A DNA stretch of 64,000 nt from Acidobacteriota bacterium (GCA_016201275.1 JACQDB010000106.1:11752-75751), one strand, 5' to 3'; positions 2,629 through 21,710 are shown, counted from the stretch's first letter. Translations and numbers: made by a program. Notes: generated by a model from the letters alone, not told the origin.

Positions 2629-4938
2629 TCACTTTTGCGCCGCGTCGCCGTTTTTGCCTTTGGCTTTGCCGTTTTCGCCTTCCTGTTCGAGTTTGTAAAA
2701 ATCTAGCATCACGTCGGACTGGCCGCGCAAATCGCGTTCGAGGCGATTCAACGCGACGCGCACCACATCGCGGTGATGAACGCGGCGGCGGCTCGGTATA
2801 TTGCTCACCTGTAGCCACAGTTTATGAATCAAGGCGACATCGTCTTCCTTGAGATTCGGCGCGTGCGCTCCCATATAGACCACCTGTTCAGCGCCCACCA
2901 GGTCAACCACCTTGAAGCAAACTTCGCGGCGCGGACGGCTGCCCAGCGCTTCCCACGACCGCCCCAAGGCACGCGCCTGTTCCTGCGGCGTCATCTTGTG
3001 GGAAAGCCCGGCGACAATCTCCGCCGAATCCAGTTGCAAGGCGGTCTGCGCCACGGCATCGAAAACACTGGTTGCTGGCACAATAACCAGATCAACCGGC
3101 TTGCCATGTTTTTCCGCCAACGCGACGACCCGGGTAAATAACTTTTGCTCGTAGCTGGTGAAGAGGTTTTCATCATAGACTTCGCGCTCCGCGCCATCCG
3201 GCCCGGCTACCAATCGCGTCGTCATCACTACGATGTCGCGCTCTTCGGTATTGGTCTTTTCCAAGGTCTTTTCCAGATGGCTCAGAGTATTGAAGTCGCG
3301 CACCGCGACCAACACATTGCCCGGTCTTACGCCAACAACTTTCTGGTTGATCTCTTCGCTGTGCTGCAATTGAAACTGATCCAAAGAGGCGATAGTGCGA
3401 TCTAACTTCTGTTTGTTTTTATATTCCGAAATCGTAAAGATGACAAAGAAAATCGCGGTGAAGGCAATTCCGGAAACGGTGGCCACCTGTTTGGTCAACA
3501 AATTAATAATCGCTATGGAAGCCAGAAACAGGGCAATCAAAATCAACCCGAAGGGGATTTCGGTTCGCCCTATACGAAGGTTGCCCGGCACTCGCCATTC
3601 GCGGCCTTCGGGATGTTTGAAGCGCAAGACCACAGAGGCCACGGCGTTAAAAGTAAAACTCCAGATGACGCCGAAGGCATAGGCTTCGCCAAGATAAAAG
3701 ATATTGCCGCGTGAAGCGATAATCGTCACGATTTGCAGAATCGCCACGAGGTTGATAAGGCGATAGGTCGTGCCATATTTTTGGTGTGGAGCGCGATACC
3801 AATCGGTCAACACGCCATCTTCCGAGATGCGATTCAAAACGCCGTTTGAGCCAATGATGGCGGTATTGACCGCGCCGGAAAGCATGATAAATCCGACCAG
3901 CACTACGAAAGCCTGAAACAACAACTTTAAGGATTGCGGCCCTACGAAATGTAGCGCTAACCCCGAAATCAAATTGCCGCCATACTCTTTCACCCGCACA
4001 TCATCGGGAATTAGGGCAACGGCAAAGAACGATACGAGCGAAGTGAAAACCAACGAATAAACAAAGATCACCCATCCGGCTTTCTGTAGATTTTTTAGTT
4101 TGGGATATTCCAATTCGCGGTTGACTTGTGCCAACGTCTCTTCGCCGCTTAAGGCGAGTATCGAATGGCCGAAGGCCATCATCACGCCAATCAAGCCGAC
4201 CACACCAGAAAGTTTGCCGACGAAACTGAAACGTCCGCCCTCTTCGGTAAACCAACCCGTGTGACGGAGCCAGCCCAGCGCCTTTTCATCAAAGTTCAAA
4301 TTTGCAGGCGTAGGCGCAGGCGGTAACTGCCCACCGTGTTGTGCCAGCGTCAACAGCGCCCACAAAATCATGATGACAATCATCACCGTCGCAATCTTCA
4401 TGATTCGCAGCGCGTCTTCCGATGATTCGTGTATGCCTTTGATGTTGCGCCACCAAAAATAAATCGTCACCAAAATGGCAAGACCGGCAGCCAGATGATT
4501 GATGGTATCGTCAGAGGGATTCCAAGTATAACCAAAGTACGTCATGGTGGAGGAAACCAGTCCAACGATGTATTGCCCCGCAGAGACGCCGGAAATCGGC
4601 CCCGTCAAAATGAAATCGAAGATCAGCGCCGAAACGCTGAGTTTGGCCATCGTGCCACCCATCGCTTCTTTGACGACGCGATAGACGCCGCCGCGTGTGA
4701 ACATCGAAGACGATTCGATGTACAAAGCGCGCACCGCATAGCTGAACAGCATGACGCCGAGAATAAACCACGGCGCGGCTTTGCCGACGAACTGTTCGGA
4801 GATGCCGCCGACATAAAAAGCCGACGAACCTAAATCGTTCAGCACGATGGCAGCGGCGCGCCAGAACGAAATGAACGACAACATTACCGAGGTCGCAACC
4901 ACGACGCGGACTCGGTTATTGGATTTCGGAGTTTCCAT
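2629..4938 (-). CDS. APC-family amino acid/cation permease with C-terminal USP-like cytoplasmic domain
   Basis: Long ORF 2629-5103. I place the start at the ATG at 4938 (METPKSNN...). It has about 12 hydrophobic segments followed by a ~250-aa soluble tail (VLVAVRDFNTLSHLEKTL...VDLVIVPATS) resembling a universal stress protein fold. Confidence 0.75.
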   Translation of the reverse strand: METPKSNNRVRVVVATSVMLSFISFWRAAAIVLNDLGSSAFYVGGISEQFVGKAAPWFILGVMLFSYAVRALYIESSSMFTRGGVYRVVKEAMGGTMAKLSVSALIFDFILTGPISGVSAGQYIVGLVSSTMTYFGYTWNPSDDTINHLAAGLAILVTIYFWWRNIKGIHESSEDALRIMKIATVMIVIMILWALLTLAQHGGQLPPAPTPANLNFDEKALGWLRHTGWFTEEGGRFSFVGKLSGVVGLIGVMMAFGHSILALSGEETLAQVNRELEYPKLKNLQKAGWVIFVYSLVFTSLVSFFAVALIPDDVRVKEYGGNLISGLALHFVGPQSLKLLFQAFVVLVGFIMLSGAVNTAIIGSNGVLNRISEDGVLTDWYRAPHQKYGTTYRLINLVAILQIVTIIASRGNIFYLGEAYAFGVIWSFTFNAVASVVLRFKHPEGREWRVPGNLRIGRTEIPFGLILIALFLASIAIINLLTKQVATVSGIAFTAIFFVIFTISEYKNKQKLDRTIASLDQFQLQHSEEINQKVVGVRPGNVLVAVRDFNTLSHLEKTLEKTNTEERDIVVMTTRLVAGPDGAEREVYDENLFTSYEQKLFTRVVALAEKHGKPVDLVIVPATSVFDAVAQTALQLDSAEIVAGLSHKMTPQEQARALGRSWEALGSRPRREVCFKVVDLVGAEQVVYMGAHAPNLKEDDVALIHKLWLQVSNIPSRRRVHHRDVVRVALNRLERDLRGQSDVMLDFYKLEQEGENGKAKGKNGDAAQK

Positions 4939-5150: not shown

Positions 5151-6380
5151 ATGCAACTGACGCGCATTGAGGCTTACGGGTTTCGCAACCTCGAAGGCTT
5201 CGTGGAAACTTCTGCCGGCCTGAATATTTTTTACGGCGACAATGCACAGGGCAAAACCAACTGGCTGGAAGCGATATATGTTCTCGGCAGCAGCAAATCA
5301 TTCCGCACCAATCAGGTGCGCGATTGCCTCAACTTCAACACTCACGAAGCCAGGATTCGCGGCGAGGTGTTGCGCGGCACGCTGCGAAAGCAACTGCAAC
5401 TGTTCCTCAACGACACCACCAAACAACTCTTCATCAACGGCAAACGCGAAGCCGTGACGCGCTATCTGGGCAACCTTGATGTCTTCGTCTTTTCGCTCGA
5501 AGAGATGGATGTGATTCGCGGCGACCCCACCAGTCGTCGCCGCTTTCTGGATCGCGGCGTAGCTACTCTGATGCCGTCGTTCATCGGCACGCTGGCGAAA
5601 TACAATCACCTGCTCAAACAGAAGAATCGCCTGCTTGCAGAAGCCAGCCAGAGCAAGGCTCCGGAAACTTTTTATCCGCAGGTCGAAGTCTGGAACGATC
5701 AGTTGGTCGAAGCCGGAACGGTAATTCACAAAGCCCGTGTCCGCTACATCGAACGCTTGAATCAGACGCTTGATGAAAACGATCATGGGCGAGCGATCTT
5801 CGGCGCTGAACGCATCAACCTGCGCTACAAATCGCACCTCGAAGGCAAAGGCGATCTGGACCAGTACCGGCAACTTTTCCGCGAGCGTTTAGAGGTTCGT
5901 TTGGCTGCCGAAGTGGCTTCCGGTCACGCCCTTTTGGGGCCGCATCGTGACGATTTGGAGATTCTTGCAGACGGGCGCGAAGTAGCGCGTTTCGGCAGCG
6001 CCGGACAACAGCGAAGTGCCTTAATTTTGCTTGATTTAGCGCAGGTTTCCATCTACAATTTTACTTACGAAGAAAGCCCGGTTTTACTCATAGATGACAT
6101 TGATGCGGAGCTTGACCGAGGGCGCATCGAAGCCCTACTTGTCGTGCTTGAGGGCAACGCGCAAACCTTCATCAGCACCTCGCGCCGCAGCATCGCCAAT
6201 CGCTATCGCGACCGCGCCGCCGTTTATTGGGTAGAGCAAGGGCAGGCCGTGAATGAACCATCTAGCGTCTCTCGTTTGGCAAGTCAAGACCCGGAAAACT
6301 CTGCCGATGAATTGGCGCGAGCCGTGCGCGAAAGGGTGGACCAAGAGGAGTCGGAAGACCTGGGGATGCAGGCAGAATGA
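5151..6380 (+). CDS. recF: DNA replication/repair protein RecF
   Basis: MQLTRIEAYGFRNLEG...FYGDNAQGKTNWLEAIY (Walker A) and LLIDDIDAELD (Walker B). Located directly upstream of gyrB. Confidence 0.95.
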   Translation: MQLTRIEAYGFRNLEGFVETSAGLNIFYGDNAQGKTNWLEAIYVLGSSKSFRTNQVRDCLNFNTHEARIRGEVLRGTLRKQLQLFLNDTTKQLFINGKREAVTRYLGNLDVFVFSLEEMDVIRGDPTSRRRFLDRGVATLMPSFIGTLAKYNHLLKQKNRLLAEASQSKAPETFYPQVEVWNDQLVEAGTVIHKARVRYIERLNQTLDENDHGRAIFGAERINLRYKSHLEGKGDLDQYRQLFRERLEVRLAAEVASGHALLGPHRDDLEILADGREVARFGSAGQQRSALILLDLAQVSIYNFTYEESPVLLIDDIDAELDRGRIEALLVVLEGNAQTFISTSRRSIANRYRDRAAVYWVEQGQAVNEPSSVSRLASQDPENSADELARAVRERVDQEESEDLGMQAE

Positions 6381-6455: not shown

Positions 6456-8924
<2,469 letters not shown>

Positions 8925-9142: not shown

Positions 9143-10903
9143 GTGTCAGTCACCTATCAAACGATTTCTCCGCCAAGCCTCTCGCCTACCCGTCGCGAGT
9201 TTTTTTCCGCCGGTCTTCTCTTATTAATTTTTTCTGTGATCCTGTTTCTGCCGGTCTTCGTCAACGGCTTTCCGAGCGGTCACGATGGTTATGTGCAGTA
9301 TCGTTGGGCGGCGCAATTCATCGAGGCAATGCAAGAGCCGGGGGTGTGGTATCCGCGCTGGCTGGGCAGCGGCAACAATTATTCGGGCAGCCCTGTGATG
9401 CTGTACTATCCGCCGCTGCCGTTTTTTCTGATGGCCTTTTTTCATCTCTTCACCGGCGACACGCTGCACGCTATGACAGTCGCTTGCCTGCTGGCGCTGC
9501 TGCTGTCAGGCGTAACGATGTATGTTTTTCTGCGCTCGTTTTTCACTTATCGAATCGCTATTTTTGCGGCGGCGTTTTATATGGCCGCGCCCTATCATCT
9601 GCATGATTTTTATCAGCGATCAGCGCTGGCGGAATTCTGGGCGTTCGCCTGGTTGCCGCTGATCCTGCACGCCATTTATCGCCTCAACCAACGCCCTCAC
9701 AGCGGCGCGATAGTTTATTTGGGATTCAGTTCTGCGGCGCTGTTTTTGACGCACATACCGATTGCGTTTGCCTTCGCTTTGGTGTTGCCGATTTACCTTT
9801 TGTGGTTGACCAGAGACTGGCGGCGCTTGCTACGAATCGGCGCGGGCTTTGGGTTGGGCGCAGGGTTGAGCGCCATCTTTTTATTGCCGGTGCTGTTGGA
9901 ACGCGACTATGTGAAAATCTCTCGCTTGCTCGGCATACGCTTTTCCAACTATTGGAGCTTTGAAGAAGTGTTCCGCAGTCCGCTATGGCAACTCTCCCCG
10001 GAGAAAGAGTTTTACCTATTAAAGCTCATTGATCTGATGGCAGTGGGATTGGCGCTGCTGGTTTTCTTGAGCGCGGCAGTTTATTTTCTGCAACGCAAAA
10101 CTCTGAAAGCCGCGCCTACCTTGCACAAGGTGTTGCTTGCCTTGTGGTGCATTTCGGCGCTTTGTCTATTTTTGATGCTGCGGGTTTCGACCTTCATATG
10201 GGAAGTTTTCCCTCTGCTTGCTTATCTGCAATTTCCGTTTCGCTGGCTGACTATGGCATCGCTCGGCGCGGCGATGCTTGTAGCATTTATCACTCTCGCG
10301 CTGCGGCAACCAAGCCGCTGGCGCATTCCCTTCGGCATGGCTTTCGCGCTGCTGCTGTGCTTTATTGCGGCAATCAGTTTTCTGGTCATCAAACAAGCGC
10401 CGCACGAACGCGACCGCCTTATACGTCCCGGCATGACGCTGGAAGTCAAAGAGTATCATCCGGTGTGGTGGGACAAACGCAAGAACGAAGACGAGGTGGA
10501 CGAAGCGACGGTTTTGAAGATGCGTTTACCAGTGGTCGCGGTCACTGAGGGCGATGCCGATATTCAAGCTATAGATGACGAAGGCGTACAACAAACCTAT
10601 GCCATCAAGTCTCGACAGCATACGACGTTGAAGTTTCGCACGCTCTATTTTCCCGGCTGGAAAGCTTATGTGGATGATCAGGCGGTTGAAGTGCAACCAG
10701 GCAAAGAAGGCTACATCGAATTGATGGTGGAAAGTGGCGAACATCTGTTGCGCTTGAATCTTGAAGAGACGCGCCCACGCCGCTTCGGAAAAATCATTTC
10801 GCTCATTGCTCTCTTTGTTGCTCTCTGCTTAATTGCCATTGCCACACGTCAACGCCTACAATCTACCGACGCGAATGACACTCCTGATGACGAGGCGCAA
10901 TGA
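9143..10903 (+). CDS. polytopic membrane protein, PTPS-related/YfhO-like (putative GT-C-fold glycosyltransferase), paralog 1
   Basis: 586 aa with a GTG start. It has many TM segments, the N-terminal motif NGFPSGHDG...VWYPRWLG...SPVMLYYPPL, and the C-terminal soluble motif LYFPGWKAYVDDQAVEV. About 50% identical by eye to the next gene. Confidence 0.65.
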   Translation: MSVTYQTISPPSLSPTRREFFSAGLLLLIFSVILFLPVFVNGFPSGHDGYVQYRWAAQFIEAMQEPGVWYPRWLGSGNNYSGSPVMLYYPPLPFFLMAFFHLFTGDTLHAMTVACLLALLLSGVTMYVFLRSFFTYRIAIFAAAFYMAAPYHLHDFYQRSALAEFWAFAWLPLILHAIYRLNQRPHSGAIVYLGFSSAALFLTHIPIAFAFALVLPIYLLWLTRDWRRLLRIGAGFGLGAGLSAIFLLPVLLERDYVKISRLLGIRFSNYWSFEEVFRSPLWQLSPEKEFYLLKLIDLMAVGLALLVFLSAAVYFLQRKTLKAAPTLHKVLLALWCISALCLFLMLRVSTFIWEVFPLLAYLQFPFRWLTMASLGAAMLVAFITLALRQPSRWRIPFGMAFALLLCFIAAISFLVIKQAPHERDRLIRPGMTLEVKEYHPVWWDKRKNEDEVDEATVLKMRLPVVAVTEGDADIQAIDDEGVQQTYAIKSRQHTTLKFRTLYFPGWKAYVDDQAVEVQPGKEGYIELMVESGEHLLRLNLEETRPRRFGKIISLIALFVALCLIAIATRQRLQSTDANDTPDDEAQ

Positions 10904-18174: not shown

Positions 18175-19143
18175 TCAGGCGCGGCGGATCAGGTGTTTCA
18201 ATTCGCCGCGACCAAAGCGCGATTGCACTTCGATGACGATGGCGGCGGTGCCGGAAGAAAAAGCGGGCAGGGTTAAATTGAAGGTGGCGACGCCATCGGC
18301 GGCAGCGCGGCCTATGAAGACTTGGGGTTTGAATGCGGTGCCAATGATCTTCACGGTGACAATGGCATCGGGTTCCACTTTGTCGCCCTGCTGCACTTCG
18401 ATTCGCAGGGTGATGGTTTTGCCAGCGATAAAGACGCTGGGAGCAATCACCTTGACATCAAGTTTTTCCTGTTCCGAACTGCGTTTGAGATAATCGGAAA
18501 TGACTTCATCCAGATTCAGGCTGCCGGTTTTCAGCAATCCCGAATTGCCTTTCGCGGGGCGGGGCGGCGCGACCGTCTGCACCGCCGGTTTTTCCATGCC
18601 GGGGGCGCGGTTTAACAAACTGCCTGTGCGTTTAGGTTCGGATAAAAATCCCGATTTGCCTTTGGTTGCAGGCGGCGACAAAAAGCCGGACTTGCGCTTT
18701 GGTGGCGGCTCCGGTTTCATCTCCTGCATCGGCAGCGCCGGTTGCGGTTCCGTTTGCTGCATCGGCAGCGCCGGTTTCAGTTCCGCTTGCCGCATAGCTT
18801 GAGCGTCGTGGACGGCCACGCTCAAGGCTTCCTGAGCGCGTGCGACTTGCGCCGGTCGCTCTTCGCTGTAACGCGCCGAGTGTTTCACCAGGTCTTCGAT
18901 TCTTCCGGCTTTGATGGCGGCGATGATGACTTGATGCTGTTTCTTGAGCAGCGTGGCAATGGCGGCTTCATTAGCGCCTTGACTGAGTTTGTCAGCATAA
19001 GGCGTCAATTTTTTGGCGATGATGGTGCCGCCTATGTACACCAGTGATTCCAGCACCGGATTATCCTTGGTGCCGCGATCTTCGGTTTGCACATGATAGA
19101 CGCGGTCTTGATGTGGAACGTCGGTGTTGAAGCCTGTAATCAT
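18175..19143 (-). CDS. hypothetical protein with Pro-rich repeat linker and C-terminal Ig-like beta domain
   Basis: ATG at 19143 (MITGFNTDVPHQDRVYHVQTEDRG...). The middle region has repeats (PALPMQ x2, K-KSGFLS x2). The C-terminal ~100 aa show an alternating beta-strand pattern. Confidence 0.55.
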   Translation of the reverse strand: MITGFNTDVPHQDRVYHVQTEDRGTKDNPVLESLVYIGGTIIAKKLTPYADKLSQGANEAAIATLLKKQHQVIIAAIKAGRIEDLVKHSARYSEERPAQVARAQEALSVAVHDAQAMRQAELKPALPMQQTEPQPALPMQEMKPEPPPKRKSGFLSPPATKGKSGFLSEPKRTGSLLNRAPGMEKPAVQTVAPPRPAKGNSGLLKTGSLNLDEVISDYLKRSSEQEKLDVKVIAPSVFIAGKTITLRIEVQQGDKVEPDAIVTVKIIGTAFKPQVFIGRAAADGVATFNLTLPAFSSGTAAIVIEVQSRFGRGELKHLIRRA

Positions 19144-19320
19144 TTTTCTTGAAAGTACCACGCGCGATTTTCACCGTCAATCCTTCTAACTTTTGACCGG
19201 CACGATGACGCGCAAAGATGTTCCTGAGACTAATACATCGAAGGGGCTGAATACTTTTATGAGGTAATCTAAACTTACTCCTGAACCTGCCTATTGTTCA
19301 AGACTCTTTTGCAAAATATC

Positions 19321-19342
19321 TTTTCCGGTGCTGCCAAAGCCG
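19321..19342. repeat. left 22-bp direct repeat (att-like) of the dut-associated cassette
   Basis: ttttccggtgctgccaaagccg is 21/22 identical to 21276-21297. Confidence 0.75.
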
Positions 19343-19357
19343 CAAAATTTATGATTT

Positions 19358-19969
19358 CTATGGACGCATTTGCTGCAAAGCATCTCTAAAAACCTGAAAA
19401 CTTTTTGAACGATTACGAGTAACATCCATGTATTCTGCAATTTTTTGCGCTGCTTCAATCTTGGGCAACCCAGTTGTATAGTACCCTTTTCTTTGAAGAA
19501 CTCTTTCCAGCGCTTCCCAAGTTCCTCCTTGTATAGCATCAGGGTCTCTATAGCTTTTACGGCCTCCGAGATGCTTGGAAACTTTTGGATAGGCTGACAC
19601 GATGGCTTCCACATCACCGAAAAACCAAGCCTCTAATTCTTCAATGGCTATTCTGTTTAAGACTTGAAATGCTTCTTCTGTTCCGACTTTTGATGGGGTA
19701 AGAAATCCTGCGTCTTCAGCATTTTTTTCTAATTGTATCTTTAGCTCCGAACAATCTTGTTGATCTCTATCTACCAAAACAACGATGCGCCAGTCAGGAG
19801 GAATCCAGGCTTTATAACCTTTTAAGCGTGAAGGAAGGTTCTTCAAAAGATCACTTTTACCTTGAAAAACATGAATCGCAAATGTGATATCTGCTCCTAA
19901 AATTTTAGGAATAAGAACGAGCAGAGCTTTCTCTGCGGAGGGTTCCTCAACCAAAAATTCAATATGCAT
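19358..19969 (-). CDS. DUF4276-like protein (TOPRIM-like: early Glu + DxD)
   Basis: 203 aa. MHIEFLVEEPSAEKALLVLIPKIL..., RIVVLVDRDQQDC, IAIEELEAWFFGD. Size and N-terminal pattern match my recollection of DUF4276. It starts 7 nt after the ATPase stop. Confidence 0.65.
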   Translation of the reverse strand: MHIEFLVEEPSAEKALLVLIPKILGADITFAIHVFQGKSDLLKNLPSRLKGYKAWIPPDWRIVVLVDRDQQDCSELKIQLEKNAEDAGFLTPSKVGTEEAFQVLNRIAIEELEAWFFGDVEAIVSAYPKVSKHLGGRKSYRDPDAIQGGTWEALERVLQRKGYYTTGLPKIEAAQKIAEYMDVTRNRSKSFQVFRDALQQMRP

Positions 19970-19976
19970 GAAACCT

Positions 19977-21230
19977 CTATGCCTCCAATTGTTTGGTTAT
20001 AGAGGTTGAAAGTTGTTTCGGAGTCCCGGAATTGGTCAACGGGTCACCGACAGGAAAAAGCCCTTCCATCCAAAGTTGACCGAGTTGTGCCCCGGCATCC
20101 ACGAATTCGTTAATGCCTCGCATATCGGCAGCACACTGAGCTTTTGTATAACCCGTATCATCACGATAAAGCACCCATAACTCTTTCGGTTTTAACCCGC
20201 TTACAAAAAAGGGCGAGTGAGTAGTAACCATAAGTTGTGTTCGACTGGAAGCTTTTCTACATTCTTCCACCAATTCCGGTAAGAGACGTGGATGCAGGTG
20301 ATTTTCTGGTTCTTCTATGCCGACCAATTGAGGGGGTGCTGGGTCATAAAGCACGGTCAAATAAGCAAGCATCTTGAGGGTGCCATCAGAAGCATATTTA
20401 GCTAGTACGGGTCGTTGGAATGGCGCATCTTTGATCTGTAGTAGAAGCCTTCCATCCGCCATAGGTTCAGCCTCTACCTTTTCCAATTTGGGAACACGCC
20501 GCGAAAGCGTTTTAAGAATTTGGTCTAATCTTTCTGGGTGTTGTTCTTTCAAGTATTGAATAACATTTGGCAAGTTATCCCCTACTGCTGATAGACGTTC
20601 TTGAGGACCTGCTTCTGGGGTAACTCTGGTGTTATCGGCTGAGAGGTATGAAAGGTACCATTCCGTTATAAAACGTCGCAAGGCGCTAACTCGCGGATGT
20701 TTTGTAAATTGCCCCAACGTGTTGACCGCTAACATCTCACGCGAAGCAAGTGTTTCTGATATGCGTTCATCCAAATCGTCAGGAGATTCCCCCGTAATCA
20801 CTTGTCCAGTTCCATTGCTAAAGTCAAGAAATTTGAATGGCTGTCCTACTTGTTTATTCCTTCTCCACTTCAACCATTCTTGAGCAACATAAGGACCTTG
20901 CTGATCTTCTTCAATAGCAAGTTTATAAGTGATGAGGGGAGAGTTTGGTTCTTCTCGGTATTTCAATTCAAAGGTAATCGCTCCTTCAGCGCCTCTCGTG
21001 CGAAGTTCTTTAAATCTTCCACGCTTATCCCAAGCCTTGCGAAGCCCAATAGAAAAACATTCCGATAGAAAAGCAAAGACATCGAACACGGTAGATTTGC
21101 CACTCCCATTGGGACCAAGAAACACGGTTAGAGGAGTAAGGGATTTTAATTCTAAATCATGTAAGGCTCGATAATTTTGAATATGTAAATACTCAATCCT
21201 CGGAACCTTATTTTTTGGTTGCTGAGTCAT
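19977..21230 (-). CDS. ABC/SMC-type ATPase (AAA_21/AAA_15-like, OLD/AriA-like N-terminal ATPase architecture)
   Basis: The ATG at 21230 is preceded by GGAGGG. Walker A is [14 protein letters not shown]. The distal [13 protein letters not shown] (Walker B/D-loop) and MVTTHSP (H-loop) lie ~300 aa downstream. Confidence 0.85.
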
Positions 21231-21266
21231 TCTTTCCCTCCGCAAGAAATTGCTTGCGAGATTATT

Positions 21267-21710
21267 CTACTCCGATTTTCCGGTGCTGCCGAAGCCGTCC
21301 GCGCCGCGTTCCGTTTCATCCAATTGCGCGACCGCAAGCAATTTCACTTCTTCCACTTTTTGAATCATCATCTGAGCGATGCGGTCGCCGCGTTTGATAA
21401 CAAAACTCTCGCGCTTATCGGTATTGATGAGAATAACGGCGACTTCGCCGCGATAGCCGGAATCAATCAACCCCGGCGCATTGACTAAAGCGATGCCGTG
21501 CCGCGCCGCCAAGCCACTGCGCGGCAAAACCAATCCGGCGTAGCCCTGCGGTATGGCCAGCGCCAATCCGGTCGGAATGACGGCGCGTTCACCGGGCGCA
21601 AGTTCCACATCTATGCGGCTATGCAGATCGAATCCGGCATCGCCGGTGCGTTGATAACGCGGCAACGGCAATGCCTCATCGAGAAGTTGAATGGCGATTT
21701 CGAGCATCAC
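21267..21710 (-). CDS. dut: dUTP diphosphatase
   Basis: 147 aa. Contains AGFDL, LPRSGLAARHGI, GLIDSGYRGEV and the C-terminal RGADGFGSTGKSE. Confidence 0.95.
   Translation of the reverse strand: MMLEIAIQLLDEALPLPRYQRTGDAGFDLHSRIDVELAPGERAVIPTGLALAIPQGYAGLVLPRSGLAARHGIALVNAPGLIDSGYRGEVAVILINTDKRESFVIKRGDRIAQMMIQKVEEVKLLAVAQLDETERGADGFGSTGKSE
21276..21297. repeat. right 22-bp direct repeat (inside the last codons of dut)
   Basis: ttttccggtgctgccgaagccg encodes ...GFGSTGK on the minus strand. Confidence 0.75.

Follow-up and report, generated by a model that had tools for sequence, protein, structure and literature searches.

A solo HEC-01 ATPase–DUF4276 gene pair, a candidate anti-phage defence module, inserted into the last codons of an acidobacterial dut gene

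We analysed a 64,000-nt stretch of DNA from an Acidobacteriota bacterium (GCA_016201275.1, JACQDB010000106.1:11752-75751), hereafter the window, in which an earlier note made from the sequence alone had marked an AT-rich two-gene cassette as a candidate uncharacterised anti-phage defence module. The cassette comprises two intact, co-directional open reading frames (ORFs) on the minus strand, gene 1 upstream and gene 2 downstream, which match the ABC ATPase and the DUF4276 protein of the HEC-01 family and lie between two copies of a short direct repeat at the 3' end of the dUTPase gene dut (Table 1). A gap of 7 nt (19970-19976) separates the two genes, and a ribosome-binding site, GGAGGG (21236-21241), stands 5 nt ahead of the ATG of gene 1. 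These ORF coordinates agree with the earlier description of two genes 7 nt apart, the first encoding 417 aa from an ATG at 21230 preceded by GGAGGG. A TTG at 21245 offers an alternative start for gene 1 that would add five codons (19977-21245, 422 aa).

Gene 1 carries the motifs of an ABC ATPase: Walker A, GPNGSGKST, at residues 39-47 (GPNGSGKS at 39-46, including K45); a signature-like SDGT at 281-284; Walker B, LVGIEEPE, at 302-309 (E306/E307); and the H-loop, TTHSP, at 336-340 (TTHS at 336-339, H338). A long insert separates Walker A from the signature motif, as in ABC ATPases of the AAA_21/AAA_15 type, and Pfam matched the protein to AAA_21 (8.3e-32, model positions 1-304 of 304) and AAA_15 (8.4e-20), in line with its earlier classification as an OLD/PARIS/Septu-type ABC ATPase. 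The residues of Walker A, SDGT, Walker B and the H-loop were invariant among 30 homologues. The AlphaFold2 (AF2) model of gene 1 was poor, with a pLDDT (predicted local distance difference test) score of 49 from a shallow alignment of sequences 75-80% identical. Gene 2 contains the motifs IEFLVEEPSAE, VVLVDRDQQD and IAIEELEAWFFGD. Its assignment to DUF4276 (PF14103), which the earlier note had proposed, is borne out by a full-length Pfam match (1.2e-34; 120.7 bits against a gathering threshold of 30.2; model positions 1-191 of 192), and the same family matched all 42 aligned homologues of gene 2. Every motif that the earlier note had quoted was present; the occurrence of these motifs in both genes is far beyond chance.

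Searches with PADLOC models gave the cassette a name. Gene 1 matched HEC-01A (PDLC04182) at 2.9e-170 and 564.6 bits, with residues 10-396 aligned to model positions 2-404 of 406, and gene 2 matched HEC-01B (PDLC04202) at 2.1e-94 and 313.3 bits, with residues 1-201 aligned to model positions 1-200 of 204. By these matches the cassette is almost certainly a member of HEC-01. HEC-01 (Hma-embedded candidate 01) was defined by Payne et al. as the combination of an ABC ATPase with a TOPRIM-like protein, and occurs embedded within DNA-modification defence operons, Hma among them, as well as solo (10.1101/2024.01.29.577857). In the window's pair, both families and their order and orientation are those of HEC-01, and the family's solo and embedded occurrence is as published. 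There is no architectural difference; what sets the window's copy apart is that it is solo, lies in a housekeeping acidobacterial neighbourhood and shares 65-80% identity with its nearest database relatives. The novelty that the earlier note had implied thus falls away. The cassette is not a new system, since its architecture, the TOPRIM assignment and the defence hypothesis have already been published and the family can be searched for in PADLOC; two phage tests are also in print, and the pair found in the MADS system is related.

For gene 2, AF2 produced a confident model (pLDDT 89.6, predicted template modelling score 0.86) from a 42-sequence alignment. The modelled core runs b1-a1-b2-a2-b3-a3-b4, with b1 at residues 2-7, b2 at 29-34, b3 at 61-67 and b4 at 103-108, and the C-terminal half is helical. 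Among 63 representatives at 38-59% identity, the residues E8, D67, D69, E111 and E113 were invariant or nearly so, as were K38, R106, W115 and D144. In the model, E8 directly follows b1, D67 ends b3 with D69 shortly beyond, and E111 and E113 come after b4, so that the acidic residues lie at the C-terminal ends of b1, b3 and b4. A Glu after b1 combined with a DxD after b3 is, in this predicted fold, the TOPRIM pattern. Two published comparisons point the same way: the predicted HEC-01B structure, superposed on PDB 6NK8, shares the metal site of the TOPRIM domain of BpOLD from Burkholderia (10.1101/2024.01.29.577857), and DUF4276 and RloB have both been assigned to the Toprim superfamily, Mad4 of MADS being a DUF4276 homologue (PMC12065111).

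Our own structural and profile comparisons of gene 2 picked out the expected motifs and topology but yielded no significant match to a TOPRIM protein. The best match of a Foldseek search against the PDB was the uncharacterised protein PH0156 (2p62, E 2.4e-3), and no OLD, primase or topoisomerase appeared in the top 50. With hhalign, the probability was about 1% both against P2 Old, where the aligned FLVEE/LLVEG covers the b1-Glu segment alone, and against the Toprim domain of the window's own GyrB, where VLVDRD aligned with LMCDAD over the DxD. Profile searches of PDB sequences with two DUF4276 alignments gave nothing meaningful. In the viral structure library BFVD, the second-ranked Foldseek match was an RloB-like protein (probability 0.93, E 0.053, TM 0.48). 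We accept the TOPRIM assignment of gene 2, as a model-based reading, on its motifs, its topology and the two published structural comparisons, and not on our own statistics. Of the earlier suggestion that gene 2 is TOPRIM-like, the motifs and topology stand, and the fold and profile comparisons lent it no statistical support.

The composition of the cassette differs from that of its surroundings. In 300-nt windows, GC content was 0.38-0.47 inside and 0.50-0.60 outside; overall it was 0.43 for the cassette and 0.53-0.55 for the flanks. GC content at third codon positions (GC3) was 0.36 for gene 1 and 0.30 for gene 2, compared with 0.61-0.66 for nine surrounding host genes. The two copies of the flanking repeat are identical at 21 of 22 nt and spaced 1955 nt apart, and the 1933 bp between them (19343-21275) hold only the two genes. 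This interval is exactly the span that the earlier note had delimited, with no mention of the repeat. GFGSTGK, encoded in the upstream copy, represents the last conserved residues of dUTPase.

Relatives of the host supply the matching empty site. Exact look-up of the two closest homologues (76-77% identity) of the 322-aa gene that lies on the far side of the cassette from dut led to two metagenome contigs, L165 (5364-6001) and L166 (5482-6001). In both, the order dut, neighbour, thiS, thiG is kept and the cassette is absent, with 184-295 nt between dut and the neighbour. When the window was aligned with these contigs, the downstream repeat copy and the DNA following it matched the relatives' dut 3' end and intergenic region. 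Because of the empty sites in relatives and the alignment of both repeat copies, we conclude that a foreign segment of 1933 bp was inserted within dut's last codons with a 22-bp duplication, supplied a new Ser-Glu-stop tail and left dut intact. The cassette is recently and horizontally acquired DNA; the earlier note had called it compositionally foreign from GC counts. A metagenome scan with the 322-aa protein returned only relatives at 45-55% identity, in which dut was not adjacent, and was uninformative on the empty site; no empty-site contig was found in the samples carrying the identical cassette. In L166, dut (5482-5706) was called as 74 aa only, with an in-frame TAA where the others read through, and this short dut may be a pseudogene or an assembly error.

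The empty site also bears on the idea that the pair is a housekeeping ATPase-nuclease of DNA repair or chromosome maintenance, comparable to RecF/RecN or SbcCD. Gene 1 does show weak similarity to SMC_N and RecF around its Walker A region. However, the genome's true recF (5151-6380) adjoins gyrB (6462-8924) elsewhere in the window, and the cassette is foreign, patchy in its distribution and missing in close relatives; because of the empty site in those relatives, we regard this idea as effectively refuted. A further alternative is a non-functional passenger, foreign DNA caught at a chromosomal break and undecayed so far: the codon composition is unameliorated, the nearest relatives lack the cassette and the locus has no defence context. 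Against this, the 620 codons of the two ORFs are free of interruptions and preserve every family-invariant residue, the good ribosome-binding site and the tight 7-nt coupling persist, and the cassette occurs at 100% identity on contigs from at least two further sequencing runs. We consider a mere passenger decidedly unlikely.

The junctions carry further information on the insertion. We read the 22-nt repeat as a target duplication, not as homology borne by the donor, because both copies have GC-rich codons of the host type and the cassette is AT-rich. Homology-facilitated illegitimate recombination through a dut fragment on the donor DNA is accordingly unlikely, given host-type codons in the repeat against a GC3 of 0.30-0.36 in the cassette. 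Within the leader of gene 1, nucleotides 21246-21258 are the exact reverse complement (13/13) of dut 21333-21345, 74 nt upstream, and we estimate the chance of such an inverted match so near the junction at about 1e-4. The relatives' sequence differs at dut 21333-21345, and the 13-nt stretch therefore looks like a copy templated from the dut of this lineage. An RNA fold across the dut-cassette junction was not significantly stable (z -1.34), though the 13-nt stem appeared in both the minimum free energy and the centroid folds. Promoter and terminator scans at the cassette gave background-level results only, and since the 36-nt spacer after dut also lacks a terminator, the cassette is probably transcribed by read-through from dut. 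A 108-aa ORF on the minus strand (19291-19617), which overlaps gene 2 in another frame, is spurious; the final 16 of its codons (GFGSTGKDILQKSLEQ, then the stop codon) are a relic of the original dut C-terminus, left downstream of the insertion.

Table 1. Coordinates of the cassette, its flanking repeats and the adjoining host genes in the window.
Feature	Position	Strand	Length	Description and basis
dut (dUTPase)	21267-21707	-		3' end is the insertion target; Pfam dUTPase on the identical contig L001; GC3 0.63, host-like
Direct repeat, upstream copy	21276-21297		22 nt	Last codons of present dut (..GFGSTGK), contiguous with the dut body
Leader	21231-21275	-	45 nt	From upstream repeat copy to gene 1 ATG; carries the new dut tail (S-E-stop), the 13-nt inverted stretch and GGAGGG
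Gene 1	19977-21230	-	417 aa	HEC-01A-type ABC ATPase; ORF, Pfam, PADLOC, motifs
Gene 2	19358-19969	-	203 aa	HEC-01B-type DUF4276 protein, putative TOPRIM-like metal-dependent nuclease; Pfam, PADLOC, AF2
Trailer	19343-19357	-	15 nt	From gene 2 stop to downstream repeat copy; sequence
Direct repeat, downstream copy	19321-19342		22 nt	Orphan relic of the original dut 3' end, contiguous with ancestral intergenic DNA between dut and its neighbour
Conserved host gene	18175-19143	-	322 aa	Downstream flank, followed by thiS and thiG; homologues in Blastocatellia metagenome-assembled genomes

The surrounding genes of the window are housekeeping or unannotated (membrane proteins, dut, thiS/thiG, secA, corA, recF-gyrB), and the window contains no tRNA genes. 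The window's copy sits outside any defence island. From the source names of the homologues of the 322-aa neighbouring gene, the host appears to be a Blastocatellia-like acidobacterium.

To place the cassette within its family, we surveyed one genome per species, covering 80 loci at 55-65% identity. The gene 2 family comprises 7749 clusters at 90% identity (E<=1e-5) and 1990 clusters at 50% identity (E<=1e-3), and the gene 1 family returned at least 8000 matches, all at E<=1e-10. Loci in the survey included representatives of cyanobacteria, Poribacteria, Acidobacteriota, Planctomycetota, Elusimicrobia, Desulfobacterota, Chloroflexota and Bacillota and, among archaea, Methanothrix and Methanosarcinales; overall, HEC-01 is scattered patchily over more than 12 phyla, archaea included, at 55-80% identity. 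An ATPase homologue lay directly upstream of the DUF4276 gene, on the same strand, at all 77 loci for which upstream DNA was available, in keeping with the earlier statement that DUF4276 usually stands next to such ATPases. All but one of 62 loci had an intergenic gap between -23 and +39 nt, and the pairwise-identity matrices of the two proteins were correlated (Mantel r 0.60, p 0.001). The two genes are thus strictly paired and co-evolving. The GC content of the cassettes tracked that of their hosts (r 0.91), yet fell below that of the flanks in 50 of 65 loci.

Some of these loci adjoin defence genes. The gene directly downstream was hsdR in 10 of 64 loci (roughly 16%); upstream neighbours at the same 64 loci included hsdS (three loci), TIR (two), SEFIR (two) and DUF3800 (three), the rest being ordinary genes. 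On plasmid pMtWR-220 of Meiothermus taiwanensis (L167, 47824-59681), the order hsdM-DUF262-hsdS-DarT (DUF4433)-macro-ATPase-DUF4276-hsdR combines three modules in one type I restriction-modification (R-M) operon, and on Synechocystis pSYSM the pair stands among toxin-antitoxin, HNH and dnd-associated genes. In one lineage, a pyrG-phzF hotspot (L170-L185) holds a constant HEC-01 pair, and the slot just upstream of it varies between strains, being occupied by a SIR2_2 protein, by a 298-aa gene with SocA_Panacea, by a 552-aa AAA_15/21 ATPase or by a 433-aa protein of unknown type (for example L170:2795-6621, L178:3165-6624, L180:2932-6624 and L185:2523-5793). The HEC-01 family is therefore associated with defence loci, and the proximity to defence genes on which the earlier note had made its proposal depend was seen with hsdR, SIR2, TIR, DarTG and toxin-antitoxin genes. 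At two of the hotspot loci, a stretch of 35-38 nt, situated some 40 nt downstream of gene 2, is similar (76-80%) to the part of the ATPase gene that encodes Walker A, 1836 nt upstream (L178, 4832-4866 and 6668-6702; L180, 4829-4866 and 6665-6702); it may be the relic of an older ATPase gene or a chance likeness in GC-rich DNA.

The embedded copies raise the question of whether the pair acts as a back-up or guard module that needs a partner. Such a module would resemble PrrC of EcoprrI, silenced by a type I R-M complex and triggered once anti-restriction proteins of the phage put that complex out of action, and a solo copy would then be inert or respond to some other cue. The 10 copies directly before hsdR occupy the position of prrC, the stop codon of gene 2 even overlaps the hsdR ATG at a verrucomicrobial locus (L035), and the Meiothermus pair is embedded between hsdS/DarTG and hsdR; Payne et al. 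also discuss such logic for embedded ABC ATPase systems. However, about 80% of the surveyed copies, the window's among them, have no R-M neighbour, a scan of 20 window ORFs (with PADLOC for 10 larger ORFs, and with Pfam) turned up no R-M gene, and the pair alone was reported to be protective in E. coli B in one screen (PMC12881386). Dependence on an R-M partner is rather unlikely.

Several characterised systems resemble the cassette in part. One is the Mad3-Mad4 pair of MADS, a validated system, which likewise joins an AAA_15/21-type ABC ATPase to a DUF4276 TOPRIM-like protein (PMC11464382, PMC12065111); Burman et al. list MADS3-4 among ABC ATPase plus TOPRIM systems (PMC11464382). However, gene 1 scored 121.8 bits against the NCBIfam MAD3 model, whose cut-off is 420, and 72 bits against PADLOC mad3, no better than the 73.8 bits of the window's RecF, and gene 2 matched no mad4 model. 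The weak mad3 matches reflect generic ABC ATPase similarity, because RecF scores alike; indeed, the PADLOC mad3 match elsewhere in the window is recF. No MADS genes were found among the neighbouring ORFs scanned. The MAD3 score, the absence of mad genes from those ORFs and the RecF-level mad3 score together rule out the cassette as a component of MADS.

PARIS (AriA with AriB) is similar in pairing an AAA_15/21 ABC ATPase sensor with a separate small effector of the TOPRIM family. It differs in that its effector is a DUF4435 protein and not DUF4276, and its substrate is tRNA; the AriA matches of gene 1 are to generic models of AAA_21/AAA_15 length. Neither gene 2 nor any of its 42 homologues matched DUF4435 even at E<=10, and no AriB model was among the PADLOC matches, so that the cassette is not PARIS. 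OLD and Gabija GajA likewise combine an ABC ATPase with an acidic metal site of the TOPRIM type, but there the ATPase and TOPRIM parts are fused, and Gabija adds the helicase GajB, whereas the cassette encodes two proteins. Here we found two ORFs, each with its own stop and ribosome-binding site, and no adjacent UvrD-like gene.

The RloA/RloB, AbiL and PrrC systems are embedded in type I R-M operons, where they stand between hsdS and hsdR, as do some HEC-01 copies, and among named viral proteins the RloB-like protein mentioned above is the best fold match of gene 2. They differ in that gene 2 has no RloB Pfam match, the AbiLi match of gene 1 is modest (3.9e-24) and PrrC consists of one protein, which has an anticodon-nuclease domain. 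By sequence, the closest solved structures to gene 1 are PtuA (8ee4, 4.9e-9, over the Walker B/H-loop region), as found in Septu and retrons, and, weakly, OLD (6p74, 7e-7). The similarity to PtuA is confined to the ATPase motifs, and the partner of PtuA, PtuB, is an HNH nuclease and not a DUF4276 protein.

Flanking repeats also occurred at two other HEC-01 loci. At a Coleofasciculus locus (L008), a direct repeat identical at 61 of 63 nt flanks the pair (8559-8621 and 10629-10691); it duplicates the 3' end of the convergent downstream gene, and a Symploca locus (L078) has a match to the orphan copy in its downstream flank. At the verrucomicrobial locus L035, a weaker repeat lies inside the 5' end of hsdR (2588-2606 and 4692-4710), with 18 of 19 nt identical in the blastn match and 20 of 22 when it is extended without gaps. 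Matches of at least 34 bits were seen for 2 of 65 pairs of flanks from the same locus, compared with 4 of 4160 control pairs from different loci, and true homology accounts for some of the latter four. No terminal sequences were conserved across the 65 loci, no conserved leader or trailer motifs were found, and no attC-like repeats were found in the variable-cargo hotspot. Neither the flanking genes examined nor the DNA between the cassette repeats contained a recombinase or transposase.

These repeats could be taken as the mark of a selfish element, an addiction-type or self-propagating pair without real benefit to the host, whose nuclease might help to make the breaks it enters. The precise insertion at a housekeeping gene's end, where 22 nt of the target are duplicated, the flanking repeats at L008 and L035, the enrichment of such repeats over the cross-locus controls, and the extreme transfer between phyla all fit such a pair. 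However, the lack of conserved termini at 65 loci and the differing repeat lengths (19-22, 22 and 63 nt) ill suit a dedicated transposase. Moreover, near-identical copies were not seen in more than one setting, the homologues nearest to the pair being only 65-80% identical and identical proteins always sharing their neighbourhood. Each locus has one copy, and no recombinase, transposase or tRNA gene was found in the flanking genes examined. We therefore judge a selfish pair unlikely. Insertion by an integrase or a transposon we reject, because the repeats vary in length and sequence, no termini are shared, no recombinase was found and identical proteins never occur in differing contexts.

The junctions instead point to capture of the cassette by a repair-type process, which at this small sample size is a lead and not a finding. 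One could speculate that HEC-01 cassettes in general may spread as naked two-gene units caught at chromosomal breaks by a repair-type process that they do not themselves encode, or, more boldly, that their own ATPase-nuclease makes the staggered break; we hold both versions to be very improbable conjectures. The signature expected of break capture may be a target duplication of variable length (22, 63 and about 20 nt) together with a templated inverted copy of nearby target DNA, and an insertion would survive only where its duplication kept the interrupted gene whole. We did not find such a junction signature of HEC-01 cassettes described in the papers that we consulted.

Taken as a whole, the evidence makes it more probable than not, by analogy with characterised systems, that the cassette is an anti-phage defence module with an ATPase sensor and a TOPRIM effector. 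On the model of PARIS, OLD, Gabija and PrrC, the ATPase and the nuclease would be made from one transcript and form a complex that holds the nuclease inactive. The ATPase may then sense a cue of infection, perhaps an anti-restriction protein of the phage or nucleic acid in an abnormal state, and ATP binding or hydrolysis (K45, E306/E307, H338) would release or activate the nuclease; the idea of release on a trigger is taken from PARIS (PMC11464382). The nuclease would bind Mg2+ through E8, D67-x-D69 and E111/E113 and cut DNA or RNA, and this cutting would stop the phage from replicating, probably to the detriment of the cell. Complex formation, trigger, substrate and abortive outcome are here inferred by analogy, and such mechanistic details are far less certain than membership of HEC-01. 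In a later published screen, a HEC-01 representative from a cold seep was reported to make E. coli B resistant to one or more of T4, T5 and T7 (PMC12881386).

Several observations weigh against this defence interpretation, beginning with the fold and profile comparisons of gene 2 described above. The text of the positive HEC-01 report states no effect size (PMC12881386), and in the first published test another HEC-01 representative gave no protection in E. coli against a subset of the BASEL phages and classic coliphages (10.1101/2024.01.29.577857). No defence gene was found near the cassette among the 20 window ORFs scanned. The ATPase is more conserved than the nuclease, with a mean pairwise identity of 0.71 compared with 0.57 at 62 loci (L005-L084) and best matches of 80% and 68% identity, respectively; this is unexpected, being the opposite of what would be predicted for a fast-evolving phage sensor in an arms race. 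HEC-01 is also rare on mobile elements (10 of 72,556 plasmids, 1 of 50,697 phages and four hits on viral contigs), unlike many defence systems that such elements carry. Finally, the substrate, trigger and stoichiometry of HEC-01 are guesses.

As the discovery of a defence system, the cassette adds little. Its value lies in being a clean natural example: a solo HEC-01 with unameliorated composition and exact boundaries, a dut gene kept by duplication, and matching empty sites. Because it combines a solo pair, exact boundaries, a target duplication and empty sites, the two genes alone can be seen as the transferred unit, and the cassette offers one of few views, at base-pair resolution, of such a module entering a chromosome. 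If break capture were true, it would be a concrete mechanism by which small defence modules become embedded in other operons, and if its bolder version held, the cassette would be a minimal self-inserting defence element. The strict pairing of the two genes, the conserved ATPase and the embedding of roughly 16% of copies before hsdR are constraints for working out the mechanism of HEC-01.

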